In this document: positions 1-6,225 of the stretch, piece by piece
Layout of the letters: each line of letters opens with the position of its first letter
Numbering within the stretch: position 1 is the stretch's first letter
NCBI GenBank assembly: GCA_964654585.1
Contig: CAZZJR010000004.1
Span: 13,157 to 71,485, forward strand
Length of the DNA: 58,329 bases
From: an uncultured Bdellovibrionales bacterium
GTDB lineage: Bacteria; Bdellovibrionota_C; UBA2361; OMII01
Direction: 5' to 3'
Translations under genes and position numbers: made by a program
The notes under the pieces: model-generated
Told to the model about the DNA's origin: nothing
Database searches by the model: none
The model's input: the letters and a program-made list of their open reading frames with translations, nothing else

Positions 1-6
1 TAGTTG

Positions 7-867
7 ATGCGTCGTTCGTTGCTGGCTCTCTTGTTCGTGGCTGGAATCTCCCTGTCGGGATGCGGTGACTCGTCCGTTGCAGACGGGCTCGCGCAGCGTG
101 ATGCGAACGAGATCGTTGCCGCGCTGCGAGCGAGGGGTATCGAAGCCAGCACCGAGAAGGAGCGTGGCGCGAAGGGGCGCTACACGGTGTCAGTGTCCTC
201 TGACCGGTTCGGTGAGGCAGCGGCGGCTCTTACAGAGCTTGGTCTGCCTGCGGAGCAGAAGCTCTCCTTCGGTGAGCTCGTTGCGCCATCCGGAATCCTT
301 CCCAGTTCGCGAGAGGTAGAAGCACTGCGCCTCGACCGGGCTGCGGCGGCAGAAATTGAGGCGCTGCTATCACAGCATCCCGGCGTCGCCTCGGCTGGAG
401 TAATCGTGCGGATGCGGGCTACTCAGTCGGGTGAGTCTCCGGCCGTGTCAGTGGTTGTTCAGAAACGGGCTGGAGATGCGCTCGATGAGGCGGCCGTGCG
501 AGAGATGGTGGTGAGGGCCGTGCCAGGGATTCATCCAGAGGGGATCGTCCTCGTGATCGCTGAGCAGCGCCCTCCGCCTGTGGTCGCCGATAGCTCTGGA
601 GCTTCGCTGGTTCCGTTTCTCGTATTCTGGAGAGTTCCGCAAGATGACTACGGCGGGCTCTCCTTGCTGCTCTTGGGTCTTCTTGTCGGCATCACAGCAT
701 TGGCTGGCTTGGCAGGCTACATCTACGGGCAGTACAACCTGAGTCGGCACACCGACGTGCTGCGGGCAGATGGGCTCGACGGCGGCCGGGTAGTGCCGAC
801 GATCGCCGCCCCACTCAAGAGGGATATCGGCGAGGACGCAGGCGAAAGTGGAGATGAAGGGGCATGA
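7..867 (+). CDS. sctJ: T3SS inner-membrane ring lipoprotein (SctJ/YscJ/EscJ family), 286 aa
   Basis: Signal peptide with lipobox LSGC; YscJ-type N-terminus (GLAQRDANEIVAALRARGI, LTELGLP); ring motif EIEALLSQHPGVASAGV; one C-terminal TM helix; much shorter than flagellar FliF. ATG at 7 preferred over TTG at 4. Confidence 0.9.
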   Translation: MRRSLLALLFVAGISLSGCGDSSVADGLAQRDANEIVAALRARGIEASTEKERGAKGRYTVSVSSDRFGEAAAALTELGLPAEQKLSFGELVAPSGILPSSREVEALRLDRAAAAEIEALLSQHPGVASAGVIVRMRATQSGESPAVSVVVQKRAGDALDEAAVREMVVRAVPGIHPEGIVLVIAEQRPPPVVADSSGASLVPFLVFWRVPQDDYGGLSLLLLGLLVGITALAGLAGYIYGQYNLSRHTDVLRADGLDGGRVVPTIAAPLKRDIGEDAGESGDEGA

Positions 868-1449: not shown

Positions 1450-2487
1450 GTGAGCACTCAGGGAATTCCGCAGAGCGGGGAGGGGAATGACGTTCAGGTC
1501 TGGGACCCACAACGCACCTGCCGCCGAGTCACGCGCGCGGAAGCGCTGCTCTCCCGAGGCTTCCTACGCTGCCGCCCGGAACGTTGGTTCCCGGGGCTAG
1601 CGGGTCAGTGGACCCCCGTCATGCATGCCTTTGGGTGCGAGGTGTCGGTCACGGATATTCGTCCGGCGTTGAATCGGGCACCAGTCGGGGGACACTCGTT
1701 CCTAGCGTCAGTTGCGGGGGAGCCACTTGTGCTCACGGTCGACCCTGATGGCGCGGAGGAGCTGGCGGGAGAGATTGTGCCCGGGGCTGAGTCGGCAGCC
1801 GCTGGAGTCGTGCTTGAGTACATGATGCGCCGGCTCTTCTTTACGCTCGTAACGTCGTGGACGGGACCTGAAACGGTGGGTGCATCTTTCGAGGGAGCTG
1901 CTGGTAGCTCCGCACCGCAGAGTTTGGCGAGTGTTCGGCTCGGAGTTTCGGTCAACACCACCCCCTTCACCGTTTGGTTTGGTCTCGGTCCGAAGATGGT
2001 TGAGACTCTCGACGGATTGTGGCGCAGGCAGGTGCAGTCGACGGCGGCGCGAGCTGCAACGGGCTCGGTGCAGGCGCGCGTTGAGGTGGCGCAGCTTGGT
2101 GTGCCTCCTCAGATGCTCTCGGAGTATCTCAAGGCAGGAACCGTGATCGATCTTGAGGTGCGGGCTTCCGATACGCTCACAGTGCGGGTCGGCGGCAAAG
2201 CTTGGATGCCGGGCAGGATGGTCAACGTTGACGGATTCTTTGGCTGTGAAGTGGCTCCGGGAGCGATCGCCGCGCCGGCAGTCCCTGAGGGAACGACCCG
2301 GCTCTCAGTTGAGCTCGGTAGTGTTGCGCTGGAAGGGCCCCAACTAGCGGAGTTCGGGCAGGCGGGAGCGGTTTTGCTCACCCAAACACCGGTCAGCGAA
2401 AATGTTTCGCTTGTTATTAACCAAGAGGTGGTTGGCAAGGCGAGGCTGTGCGTCTACGAGGGGCGCTTCGCCATCGAGGTGCTGTAG
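1450..2487 (+). CDS. sctQ: SctQ/FliM-FliN-like C-ring (sorting platform) protein with C-terminal SpoA domains, 345 aa
   Basis: SpoA-like segments (YLKAGTVIDL...VRVGGK; RLSVELGSVAL...VSLVINQEVVGKARLCVYEGRFAIEVL); GTG immediately follows the upstream stop. Confidence 0.8.
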   Translation: MSTQGIPQSGEGNDVQVWDPQRTCRRVTRAEALLSRGFLRCRPERWFPGLAGQWTPVMHAFGCEVSVTDIRPALNRAPVGGHSFLASVAGEPLVLTVDPDGAEELAGEIVPGAESAAAGVVLEYMMRRLFFTLVTSWTGPETVGASFEGAAGSSAPQSLASVRLGVSVNTTPFTVWFGLGPKMVETLDGLWRRQVQSTAARAATGSVQARVEVAQLGVPPQMLSEYLKAGTVIDLEVRASDTLTVRVGGKAWMPGRMVNVDGFFGCEVAPGAIAAPAVPEGTTRLSVELGSVALEGPQLAEFGQAGAVLLTQTPVSENVSLVINQEVVGKARLCVYEGRFAIEVL

Positions 2488-3486: not shown

Positions 3487-4065
3487 ATGGACAGCTCTTT
3501 TTTCGGGGCACTTGTAGCCCTGCTGCTCTTTAGCCAATTCGTCAAGTTCGCGACGGTCCTTTCTGTGTTTCGCTACGGGGCAGGGCTGGTCGGTTTTGAG
3601 CTTGGGGTGGTGACGCTTGTCGCTGCGCTTGGGCTCGCTTTTGCGACGCTCCCGAAAGAAGTCAGGGAGTCTGGTGCCGCGGTTGCGATCGTGTCGGGTG
3701 CCCCGGCGGATACTGTGGCGTTGCGCACCTCGCTTGTGCCGACGATGGCAGCGAGCCTCGACCCGCAGATTGTGAAGGGGCTTTACGGAGCAGATACTTC
3801 TCTCACGCCAGAGTCGCTCAAGAGCGATCTGGGCCGCTTGCTGCCTGCATACACCCTCTCGCAGCTTAAGTCGGCGCTCGTCCTCGGCGTCATGCTGCTT
3901 ATTCCGTTTGTTCTCCTGGACCTCGTTGTTGTGCATGTGCTCTCGCTGCTCGGTATTCAGCAGATCGGAGCGCAGGTTGTCTCGCTGCCTCTCAAGCTCC
4001 TCCTGTTCCTCGCTATCGATGGTTGGGGGCTGCTGGGTGCCAAGCTTCTCGCTGGAGGTGCTTAG
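3487..4065 (+). CDS. sctR: Divergent T3SS export-gate protein SctR/FliP family, 192 aa
   Basis: FliP/YscR signatures FVKFATVLSVFR and LIPFVLLDLVV...VSLPLKLLLFLAIDGWGLL. Confidence 0.88.
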   Translation: MDSSFFGALVALLLFSQFVKFATVLSVFRYGAGLVGFELGVVTLVAALGLAFATLPKEVRESGAAVAIVSGAPADTVALRTSLVPTMAASLDPQIVKGLYGADTSLTPESLKSDLGRLLPAYTLSQLKSALVLGVMLLIPFVLLDLVVVHVLSLLGIQQIGAQVVSLPLKLLLFLAIDGWGLLGAKLLAGGA

Positions 4066-4307
4066 TGCATCAAGAGATTTCGAGTCTCTGGCAGCAGGGC
4101 ACCAAGGTGCTGGTCGTGGTGCTAGTGCCGACGCTTCTTATTCCTGCAGTTGGCCTTCTGTCAGGGTTGCTCCAGGGTATGATGGGAGTGCGTGAAGATG
4201 GCCTCCAGTATGCGCTGCGCGCGCTTGCGCTGGCTGGGGTGGTCCTCGTTTTTGGGGCATCTTTCGCGAGTGCGTTTGCCGAGCTGATGCAGATGGCGCT
4301 GAGGTAG
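4065..4307 (+). CDS. sctS: Divergent T3SS export-gate protein SctS/FliQ family, 80 aa
   Basis: GTG overlaps the sctR TAG; two TM helices; GLLSGLLQ...REDGLQYALRALAL aligns with the GLLxxLxQ...QEQTLxFxxKLL pattern; size and position fit. Confidence 0.78.
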   Translation: MHQEISSLWQQGTKVLVVVLVPTLLIPAVGLLSGLLQGMMGVREDGLQYALRALALAGVVLVFGASFASAFAELMQMALR

Positions 4308-4308
4308 G

Positions 4309-4857
4309 ATGCTTGCCGCGCTCCTTCCCGTCTTCGGACCCGTTCTCCTGATGAGCATCGCTCTCAGCCTTTCGTTCGTGGTGGCTGGCTCGCCGCAGTC
4401 AGCGTTCTCTGGCGCGTTTGCCATCATGCTCCCGGCCGTCGCAGCCGCAGCTTCCCTGAGCATGCTCTACCGATGGTGCTTTCCTAATGCGGACACCCGA
4501 CCGGCTGGGCTGGCGGCCGCGCTGGTTACGCTCCTCATGCTCTTCTCGTCTAGGGATTACCTGTCGCTCTTTTCGTCTTCGGCTTGGCTGGGAGCTGATT
4601 CGGCTAATCTGCTGATTGCAGCGCGCGAGCTTGCGCTTGTGTGGGGGCTTTCCTTAATTTCGGTGATGGCTGTCGTGTTGGTGTTAGAGCTGCCCCTGCG
4701 CTTCATCTTTGCGGGCTGGAGTGGGCCCGGTCAGGAATCGACCCTGCGCAGCGCCCGGTGTGTGGCTTCATGCGCAATAGTAGGCGCCGCCTGGGTCCTG
4801 CTCGAGGAGAGCGCTGTGGAGAGGCTGTTGCACCTTAAGCAGCTCCTGGTGCGGTAG
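4309..4857 (+). CDS. sctT: Polytopic membrane protein, probable shortened SctT/FliR, 182 aa
   Basis: Very hydrophobic and coupled between sctS and sctU; sequence similarity by eye is weak, so the call is mainly syntenic. Confidence 0.55.
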   Translation: MLAALLPVFGPVLLMSIALSLSFVVAGSPQSAFSGAFAIMLPAVAAAASLSMLYRWCFPNADTRPAGLAAALVTLLMLFSSRDYLSLFSSSAWLGADSANLLIAARELALVWGLSLISVMAVVLVLELPLRFIFAGWSGPGQESTLRSARCVASCAIVGAAWVLLEESAVERLLHLKQLLVR

Positions 4858-4860
4858 GGT

Positions 4861-5442
4861 ATGGCTGAGAGCGCATTCGCCGGAAAAGAGGAGCTGCAGG
4901 AGCTTAAGGCAAGAGGGGTAGTATTTAGCTCGCCGCTAGCTACTCGGTCCGTCGTCCTGGCAGCGCTGCTTGGCTCAAGTGTAGCCGGTTGGGAATGGGT
5001 TACATCGGCGCCAGCGCCGGAGACGCTGCCGGCGATGATTGAACTGGCGCGAAGAGTAGGGCTCGCGGCAGTCGTGCTGTGCGCAGTTACCGTTGCGGCA
5101 ACGCTTGTCGTTACTTTGGCCTTCAACGGCTTCACGCTATCCGCAGGTTTTCTCTCACTCAAGATTCGCCCCGTGCGGCGAGAGAGCGTGTGTATAACCC
5201 TGGCGAGTGGGGTGCTTGGCGCCTCGGTGGGCTCTTTGCTCGCCTACGCATTCGCGGGCGAGCTGTTCCTGTTGCTCAGGACCACTGACGCAGCTTCTCT
5301 GGGAGCTAGCCTTGGCCGGCTGGCCTTGAGGCTTGCCAAAGTAGTTGCCCTTGGAGCGGTTGGGGTGGCGGTGATAGTGACACCGGTCACCAGGGCGCGT
5401 TTTCTCTGGCTTCACCGGTCCCGGAAGGGTGTGCGCGAGTAG
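4861..5442 (+). CDS. sctU: SctU/FlhB-like protein, transmembrane domain only, 193 aa
   Basis: N-terminus KEELQELKARGVVFSSPLAT resembles FlhB/YscU KxxxAReeGqvaxSxel; four hydrophobic segments; ends at the post-TM4 helix (TRARFLWLHRSRKGVRE); no NPTH domain; tandem TAGTAG stop. Confidence 0.68.
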   Translation: MAESAFAGKEELQELKARGVVFSSPLATRSVVLAALLGSSVAGWEWVTSAPAPETLPAMIELARRVGLAAVVLCAVTVAATLVVTLAFNGFTLSAGFLSLKIRPVRRESVCITLASGVLGASVGSLLAYAFAGELFLLLRTTDAASLGASLGRLALRLAKVVALGAVGVAVIVTPVTRARFLWLHRSRKGVRE

Positions 5443-5542
5443 TAGTGCAATTTGCAGCAAGGTGCTAGAAAGACCGAGTGAGGGCGGTCATTGGGGCCCA
5501 AAAAGGCGCGCGCTCTCGGATCAATTTTTTCGCCTCGCAGCT

Positions 5543-5791
5543 ATGTCCACAACCATCGGGAGTCCCCCGGATCCATTTTCCCTGTCGCCTCTGCTCTCGC
5601 TCCTGCCATCGTGCGGCTCGGTTTCGCGCCTCGAAGGGATGGTATCTTCTCTCTTTGCCCGTCAAGAGAAGGTGCTGCAGCTCCGCGAGCAGGGCGGTAG
5701 TAAGGAGATTGAGCGTCGTCTTGCCTGTGAGGAGGCGATGCTGCGGCAAGTTCTCGATTGGCTCTCGGCCAAGAGCGGAGGGGGTGAGTAA
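5543..5791 (+). CDS. Small hypothetical protein, 82 aa
   Basis: ATG at 5543; stop overlaps the next start (TAATG); helical C-terminal half. Confidence 0.6.
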   Translation: MSTTIGSPPDPFSLSPLLSLLPSCGSVSRLEGMVSSLFARQEKVLQLREQGGSKEIERRLACEEAMLRQVLDWLSAKSGGGE

Positions 5792-6225
5792 TGGACCTTC
5801 CTTCGCGCAAGCCAACGGATCTCCCGCGGCGTAGTTACTCAAGAGAAGAAGTAGTCGATTTGTACGAGCTTGGAAAACTGTGGCTCGAGACCGGCCAACA
5901 CAAGCGTGCCGAAGACATTATGTCTGGCCTTAACGAGGTTGCGCCGGATTTTGCTCCAGCCTGGCTCGGGACCGCCTTTCTGCGTGGAACACAGCTCGAC
6001 TACGAGGGAGTGGTCGCCGCGGCCACGTCAGCCCTGCGCCTTGAGCCCGACTGCGTTGAGGCGATGCTTTTTGTGGTTATCTCCGCTCTCGCTCTCAAAG
6101 ACTCGAGTATGGCCGGCACCTACCTTGGTGAAGTCGGTGACCGGATCGAGCAGGGGCAGGTCTCTAATCCGAACGTAACCCGGCTGTACAAGATGCAGCT
6201 CGCCCGTTACCAAAACCGTGAGTAG
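5791..6225 (+). CDS. TPR protein, SycD/LcrH (class II T3SS chaperone)-like, 144 aa
   Basis: TPR pattern (LYELGKLWLETGQHKRAEDIM, APDFAPAWLG, ALRLEPDCVEA); size and context match class II chaperones. Confidence 0.72.
   Translation: MDLPSRKPTDLPRRSYSREEVVDLYELGKLWLETGQHKRAEDIMSGLNEVAPDFAPAWLGTAFLRGTQLDYEGVVAAATSALRLEPDCVEAMLFVVISALALKDSSMAGTYLGEVGDRIEQGQVSNPNVTRLYKMQLARYQNRE

Follow-up and report, generated by a model that had tools for sequence, protein, structure and literature searches.

The stretch of DNA from an uncultured Bdellovibrionales bacterium presented above encodes a 193-residue protein that, judged by sequence comparison, is a true SctU/FlhB membrane domain from which the CN segment, the NPTH autocleavage motif and the CC domain are all missing. 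SctU/FlhB is treated as a universal and essential component of the five-protein core, and the order of secretion is set by its C-terminal domain, which autocleaves at NPTH and governs substrate-specificity switching. We consider it probable that the protein is a divergent, Bdellovibrionota-specific SctU of a T3SS-like gate, one that has evolved down to its membrane domain and clamps SctRST without a canonical switch. In a large natural clade, the membrane half of SctU is maintained by selection and the switch half has been dropped. No description of a natural membrane-only SctU or FlhB was found in the literature.

Sequence data and searches

The source is assembly GCA_964654585.1 (GTDB lineage Bacteria; Bdellovibrionota_C; UBA2361; OMII01), a metagenome-assembled genome of 2.97 Mb in 164 contigs that is 90.5% complete and has a mean GC content of 58.7%. 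The window, by which we mean the whole 58,329-nt stretch that was analyzed, spans positions 13,157-71,485 of the forward strand of contig CAZZJR010000004.1 (C4). Several short contigs of the assembly (C91, C97, C131, C136, C153 and C155) have a GC content of 70-75% and were probably binned from a different organism. Comparisons within the genus covered 35 genomes or species, for which SctV, SctR, CC genes and FlhB/SctU were counted. An alignment of 37 family sequences, A3, was used for hhalign and AF2. A family HMM of 36 sequences was run against every six-frame ORF of the genome with all filters off, and an exhaustive HMMER search for relatives of the short SctU was made in a database of 1.84 billion representatives.

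Extent and features of the short SctU gene

The gene begins 3 nt past the gene in the SctT position and ends AAG GGT GTG CGC GAG TAG TAG (Table 1). The original prediction described a 193-residue ORF closing on a tandem TAG TAG with no NPTH-containing ORF after it, and an ORF check together with a six-frame scan bears this out: NP[TS]H has zero occurrences in all six frames of the whole 58-kb window. The stop lies about 12 residues past helix 4, a point equivalent to FlhB residue ~225-240.

Table 1. Features of the short SctU gene, its neighbors in the window, and the paralogous SctU genes on contig C3. Coordinates are positions in the window unless a contig or locus is given.
Feature	Coordinates	Strand	Evidence or remarks
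SctJ-family inner-membrane ring lipoprotein	4..867	+	PF01514 55 bits; TIGR02544 89 bits
SctQ/FliN-like C-ring protein	1450..2487	+	PF01052 57 bits
SctR/FliP-family gate subunit, 192 aa	3487..4065	+	PF00813 79.5 bits
SctS/FliQ-family gate subunit	4023..4307	+	Longest ORF 94 aa, 80 aa in relatives; PF01313 24 bits; TIGR01403 weak
182-aa membrane protein in SctT/FliR slot	4309..4857	+	Assigned by position alone; conserved in all relatives
Short SctU, 193 aa plus stop	4861..5442	+	
N-terminal cytoplasmic helix KEELQELKA, residues 9-17, followed by RGVVFSSPLATRS	4885..4911	+	AF2 model
Helices 1 and 2 (first hairpin), residues 25-48 and 56-88	4933..5124	+	AF2, 37-sequence alignment; pLDDT about 77-82
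Helix 2-3 loop, residues 89-109 (21 residues), NGFTLSAGFLSLKIRPVRRES	5125..5187	+	AF2; predicted FlhB_L loop counterpart, about 10 residues shorter
Helices 3 and 4 (second hairpin), residues 110-140 and 144-184	5188..5412	+	AF2
C-terminal tail RFLWLHRSRKGVRE	5398..5439	+	Apparently what is left of the first part of the FlhB_CN linker; aligns with FlhB YQWLRQNKMTKEEVKDE
Tandem stop TAG TAG	5440..5445	+	Double in relatives L011 and L030; TAG TAG TAG in L008
Conserved 82-aa protein, PPDPFSLSPLL...LFAR.EKV...MLRQ.LDWL	5543..5791	+	Always after short SctU
144-aa TPR protein, SctY/LcrH-chaperone-like	5791..6225	+	TPR_19; weak SctY/LcrH matches
Stand-alone CC-like ORF, 86 aa	C3:37673-37888 (L024:5653-5910)	-	PF01312 positions 262-334, 40 bits
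C3-type SctU, TM plus CN, 260 aa	C3:43582-44331 (L024:11559-12338)	-	PF01312 positions 2-256

The segment RGVVFSSPLATRS is the counterpart of the FlhB N-terminal motif PT..R..(E/K)AR.(E/K)G.V..S.(E/D)L and aligns to ELPTERRIAELRRTGAIFHS of FlhB; within the N-terminal segment, L15 and G19 are invariant among the 37 sequences. The loop between helices 2 and 3 carries a conserved (N/Q)-x-G-F-x-x-S...L...R block at the place of FlhB_L, where alignment confidence is low. Two further residues, A170 and F181 in the hairpin of helices 3 and 4, are near-invariant in the family alignment. An AF2 model made with alignment A3 (pLDDT 71.6) shows a short helix at the N-terminus and then four long ones, with a loop of 21 residues between the second and the third; from only five aligned sequences the pLDDT drops to 50 and the model is unusable. 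The predicted layout matches that of FlhB_TM in the Vibrio FliPQR-FlhB structure, which has four helices in two hairpins and a long loop (PMC7064499).

Homology to SctU/FlhB

Neither Pfam nor NCBIfam recognizes the protein of the window when it is searched alone. Its best alignment to PF01312 has E=3.9, with residues 14-103 placed in the correct register on profile positions 14-114. A profile of the five close homologues recovers diverged copies from other species of the same genus and finds nothing among PDB sequences at E<=10. Because the window copy scores below every curated threshold, membership in the family rests on transitive and profile-profile evidence. Four congeneric orthologues pass the gathering score of PF01312 at 52, 58, 55 and 27 bits, matching within profile positions 7-217 of 335, and the three best of them (52-58 bits) match positions 12-217. 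Matches to this model are found for 10 of 15 family members, and FlhB is the JGI annotation for proteins of the same short kind with 207-209 residues. In hhalign, A3 aligns to the flagellar FlhB of the same genome at a probability of 92.3% (E 5.5e-7), and columns 3-211 of the family correspond to FlhB residues 9-241 of 363; NPTH lies near residue 270. When the family HMM is run against the ORFs of the genome, the protein itself is followed by the SctU/FlhB paralogues on C3 (E 1.6e-5) and C12 (E 5.8e-4), and the next sequence has an E-value of 0.24. That the protein is FlhB-like by profile search is thus borne out through its orthologues and through hhalign, the window copy alone staying at E=3.9.

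A Foldseek search of PDB with the 37-sequence AF2 monomer gave no matches other than de novo helical bundles, all with E>4. The probable reason is that FlhB_TM is splayed open on FliPQR while the monomer model packs as a bundle; we take the null result to say nothing about a membrane hairpin protein that is modelled in isolation.

Age and conservation of the truncation

Five proteins with 80-100% identity, from independent assemblies, are each 192-193 residues long and share identical 13-gene neighborhoods. The exhaustive HMMER search found 16 relatives, all of 177-205 residues bar one 100-residue fragment. The homologues found overall range from 177 to 230 residues throughout, so that comparing the lengths of orthologues restores no NPTH-containing ORF of ~350 residues. 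Profile A2, applied to a phylum sample of 124 genomes in 64 genera, matches in 40 of the genomes and 20 of the genera, some of the weakest matches being possible cross-hits onto the C3-type paralogue; the short form is spread over many genera of the order. The matched open frames are at most 270 codons long with one exception, a stop-to-stop frame of 369 residues in G051. This apparent long form was rejected, as the true ORF begins past the overlap with sctT and encodes about 208 residues.

We inspected five distant loci manually, four of them in other families and the fifth in a different order. Their short SctU proteins have 205-230 residues, and the genes follow the order sctR, sctS, sctT, short sctU, a gene for about 82 residues and one for a TPR protein of about 140 residues. 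Their C-termini read RHRMTRREVQSEVGE and KHGMTRREIEDEAKAR, directly before the stop, and RNRMSKTEILKESLEG... and RNRMSKTEILKESLEGQMSPTNRG..., shown without their last residues: the FlhB RMT(K/R)(R/K)E motif is present and then the protein stops. The canonical FlhB counterpart of this end motif is RMSKQEVKDE(.KE.EG). Because the distant loci keep the canonical motif up to the stop, the clade of the window gene is the branch in which trimming and divergence have gone furthest, within an old family derived from full-length SctU. Between the window gene and two relatives, dN/dS is 0.26-0.27 at a dS of 0.37-0.42, which indicates purifying selection on the short SctU.

The 82-residue frame in the window is open back beyond the SctU stop, and the spacing between the two genes varies from 16 to 101 nt among relatives. 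A fusion of SctU with the 82-residue ORF by read-through or frameshift was considered and rejected: two close relatives (L008 and L011) have an in-frame stop codon 26-35 nt beyond the end of SctU.

Gene neighborhood

Two small ORFs lie between the SctJ and SctQ-like genes, and a DUF3313 lipoprotein gene precedes sctR. Upstream of the window are an FHA/SctD-like gene and one gene of unknown function. The gate as a whole appears unusually diverged, the protein in the SctT slot having no Pfam or NCBIfam match at E<=5 and SctS scoring just below the cut-off of PF01313.

The short SctU, the 82-residue protein and the TPR protein form a triad that is invariant at all loci examined, over SctU identities that run from 80% down to about 16%. 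In a distant relative (G010, L066:1355-2062) the latter two are fused into one protein of 235 residues, a gene fusion that is evidence for their interaction. A distant TPR orthologue matches T3SS_chap_SctY with an E-value of 5e-8 and 33 bits, against a cut-off of 70. Profile searches detected no likeness to FlhB_C in the 82-residue ORF or the TPR protein. They also gave no ruler, needle, rod or secretin family match in the cluster, which for needle, rod and ruler is weak evidence because such proteins are small and fast-evolving.

Location of C-domain sequences in the genome

Searches with PF01312 and tblastn place C-domain sequence at two sites in the assembly, the flagellar FlhB on C12 and a stand-alone ORF on C3. 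The PF01312 scan of the assembly at E<=10 gave nothing on contig C4, and tblastn with the FlhB C-domains of the genome itself hit only C12 and C3:37655-37912. The C12 protein is an intact flagellar FlhB of 363 residues that contains NPTH (...ADVVITNPTHYAVAL...). The C3-type SctU ends with ...RRSKVVVVRRAPRSK or ...SKVVVVRRAPRSK and then a stop at the NPTH position, so that NPTH is replaced and the gene terminated; to judge from these termini, this SctU has been split into two genes at the autocleavage site. The CC ORF lies 5.7 kb from it, with a 1035-residue PAS/GAF histidine kinase between them. The gene adjoining sctR in the C3-type cluster is weakly FliK-like, matching Flg_hook at 18 bits where the cut-off is 29.8.

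Intact FlhB is present in 35 of 35 genomes of the genus. The TM plus CN gene and the CC gene each occur in about 31 of the 35, and in 20 genomes the two are on one contig, 3-7 kb apart. A C4-type gate, recognized by its own class of SctR, occurs in about 22 of the 35, and is absent from several genomes of at least 94% completeness that carry the CC gene; examples of genomes with a CC gene and no C4-type cluster are G058, G049, G046 and G053. The free CC piece therefore belongs to the split paralogue: it is linked to the C3-type SctU and also occurs in genomes that have no C4-type cluster. The genus thus holds three grades of the protein: intact FlhB with NPTH, SctU split at NPTH, and membrane-only SctU. 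The original prediction had allowed that the C-domain might be encoded elsewhere. This holds for the genome, which has the 86-residue CC gene on C3, and fails for the short gene, since CC tracks the split SctU; tblastn of the FlhB C-domain found no C-domain on the contig of the short SctU.

Export gates, SctV and ATPases in the genome

The genome encodes three gate sets, namely the flagellar one on C12, the C3-type and the C4-type. Its SctV proteins are also of three types, encoded on C12 (flagellar), C9 and C1. All three SctV types are found in 35 of 35 genomes, with or without the C4-type cluster, and since the SctV set is identical across all 35 the C4-type cluster brings no SctV of its own. 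The coupling of the C4-type gate to any export engine is putative. Two ATPases of the FliI/SctN class are encoded, on C24 and C2, and two secretins, both outside the cluster, on C7 and C27.

On C1 (C1:59230-70384, L027:3230-14384), an orphan SctV/FlhA homologue of 703 residues (PF00771, 586 bits) is encoded immediately after Tad-like genes for a CpaE-like ATPase, RcpC/CpaB, a CpaF-type ATPase and two TadB/C proteins, and before a gene for a kinase-like/HEAT protein. Contig C9 carries a partial T3SS-like cluster (C9:25550-31200, L028:7550-13204) with a sigma factor, SctJ-like and SctQ-like proteins, a 112-residue ORF, SctV and a TPR protein. The C9 SctV has 630 residues and a diverged C-terminal half. 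No sctRSTU genes belong to this cluster, whose partner may be the C3-type gate.

Alternative explanations

It is highly improbable that the gene is not sctU at all and encodes an unrelated four-helix membrane protein sitting after sctT. Such a protein would fit with the lack of any significant Pfam, NCBIfam, PDB-sequence or Foldseek match for the window copy, but its orthologues exceed the PF01312 cut-off in register over positions 12-217, hhalign gives 92%, the reciprocal HMM search returns FlhB paralogues only, and FlhB motifs are kept both at the N-terminus and after helix 4. It is likewise very unlikely that the gene is a decaying relic, a piece of a pseudogene or a misassembly of a former full-length sctU in a non-functional cluster. 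Independent assemblies, and lineages whose synonymous divergence is saturated, share both the length of the protein and the position of its stop; dN/dS is 0.26; the adjoining genes are intact and tightly spaced; and no remnant of a C-domain is found downstream in any frame. These points stand against the accessory nature of the cluster (about 22 of 35 genomes), its want of an SctV and an ATPase of its own, and its strong divergence, with SctT and SctU both undetectable by Pfam in this genome, all of which might be expected of a relic.

Two further explanations would keep substrate selection by other means. The switch domain might act in trans, as the 86-residue FlhB_CC-like protein of C3 or another soluble protein, so that switching is kept. 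A stand-alone CC gene does exist in the genome, and there is a precedent in FlhX, a stand-alone FlhB_CC homologue that, according to Pallen 2005, Wand 2006 and Smith 2009 as cited in a preprint, partly replaces FlhB_CC in Helicobacter pylori (bioRxiv 10.1101/2021.08.29.457346). We nevertheless judge the proposal improbable, given that each genome has one CC gene, that the C3-type SctU, 3-7 kb away from this gene, supplies the matching CN, and that the gene is also found where the C4-type cluster is not. In SctU_C structures, moreover, the CN strand and linker hold CC after cleavage, and the short SctU is missing the whole CN segment. Neither HMM searches nor tblastn found a second C-domain-like sequence, in an assembly whose 90.5% completeness means that a divergent trans-acting partner could be missing or unrecognized. 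The other explanation is a non-homologous replacement, in which the 82-residue and TPR proteins form a cytoplasmic module that selects substrates at the gate or at SctV. It draws on the invariance of the triad with the short SctU at every locus examined, on the fusion in G010, and on the weak likeness of the TPR protein to SctY, whose partner SctX binds SctV. We think this unlikely too, since the SctY/LcrH matches all score below curated cut-offs, the two proteins might just as well be a normal substrate and its chaperone, their contact with SctU is conjectural, and such pairs also occur in T3SS clusters that have a full-length SctU.

Proposed role of the short SctU

Under the favored reading, a membrane-only SctU that clamps the gate and carries no canonical switch, the protein would sit on SctR5-SctS4-SctT1 as a clamp, with its loop beneath SctS where the gate opens to the cytoplasm, by analogy with FlhB, whose FlhB_L loop wraps the base of FliPQR (PMC7064499). 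FlhB_C has been described as the docking site for early substrates (PMC8983047). With neither CN nor CC, the short SctU would be devoid of the NPTH autoprotease, of the target of FliK/SctP and of the early-substrate docking provided by SctU_C, and the machine would therefore most likely export or gate a single class of substrate, without ordered switching. Substrate recognition would be left to SctV, SctQ and probably the adjacent 82-residue and TPR pair, which may resemble SctX/SctY; one may speculate that this pair takes over substrate delivery at SctV. Export of a single class would suit a machine that does not assemble a needle or hook of controlled length. The suggestion in the original prediction of a needleless device without a switch fares better than that of a C-domain elsewhere, in that the cluster has no ruler, needle or secretin match; the loss of switching itself is inferred.

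The separation of the two halves would distinguish two jobs of SctU, the structural one of clamp and loop on the gate and that of substrate docking and switching. It would mean that gates of the T3SS type can be retained after the switch is lost, and would provide a natural test of the purpose of the C-domain. A single genus that holds intact, split and membrane-only states offers ready comparisons for studies of gate assembly and opening, and the finding bears on the needleless T3SS-like machines of bacterial predators. A bolder proposal, possible though rather doubtful, is that the triad marks a third, undescribed class of T3SS-derived machine in the Bdellovibrionota, which is switchless, borrows its SctV (possibly that of the Tad/Kil-like operon) and acts with a pilus in prey contact. 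If that were true, the genus would be a natural "deconstruction series" of the switch protein.

Comparison with known systems

Like the canonical FlhB/SctU proteins (YscU, SpaS, EscU and flagellar FlhB; PF01312), the short SctU begins with a homologous cytoplasmic segment, has four long helices with a predicted loop joining the second to the third, carries the R(M)(S/T)K.E motif past helix 4, and occupies the gene slot after sctR-S-T. The short SctU differs in ending at the equivalent of ~225-240 of about 360-380 residues, without the CN linker helix, NPTH or CC, in a loop about 10 residues shorter, and in a divergence so strong that the copy in the window is missed by the Pfam model when searched singly.

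A separate short FlhB was observed on C131 (L025:1465-2157), a 4.3-kb contig of 73% GC that is likely a binning contaminant and carries fliP-Q-R, a 231-residue FlhB without a C-domain, and flhA. This FlhB has 21 homologue clusters, all of 227-232 residues, and a short flhB is also found at L067:10001-10684, on a 135-kb metagenome contig, in a flagellar fliO-P-Q-R-flhB-flhA-flhF-fliA operon. To go by this operon, the C131 type is a flagellar export gate with a membrane-only FlhB. It is unrelated to the case in the window, which implies that membrane-only FlhB arose more than once.

Separately encoded parts of FlhB are also a feature of FlhX and other stand-alone FlhB_CC proteins (H. pylori HP1575, P. 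putida PP_4329), and the present genome likewise has a CC-only gene. The organisms with FlhX have a full-length FlhB as well, whereas the CC gene here pairs with the paralogue split at NPTH and not with the membrane-only SctU.

The needleless NF-T3SS/T3SS* of Myxococcus xanthus (MXAN_2434-2464) offers a parallel in context. Both systems have a T3SS-derived basal body and belong to predatory lineages formerly counted as "delta-proteobacterial"; both have FHA-domain and SctD/J/Q/R/S/T/U genes; secretin, needle and translocon genes are absent from the M. xanthus cluster, and profile searches, which small needle proteins may escape, gave no match to such families here. The M. xanthus T3SS* works with the Tad-like Kil pilus in predation, and reviews place SctRSTUV, SctN and SctL inside its cluster and make no mention of a shortened SctU (PMC3459982, PMC10433427, PMC12075869). 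Compared by the gene lists of these reviews, the present system differs in having SctV and the ATPase outside the cluster and a membrane-only SctU. In the present genome a T3SS part is linked to Tad-like genes, the orphan C1 SctV coming right after them, which recalls the pairing of the Kil pilus with T3SS* in Myxococcus. By this analogy, kinship to the Myxo-type T3SS* may be taken as a lead.
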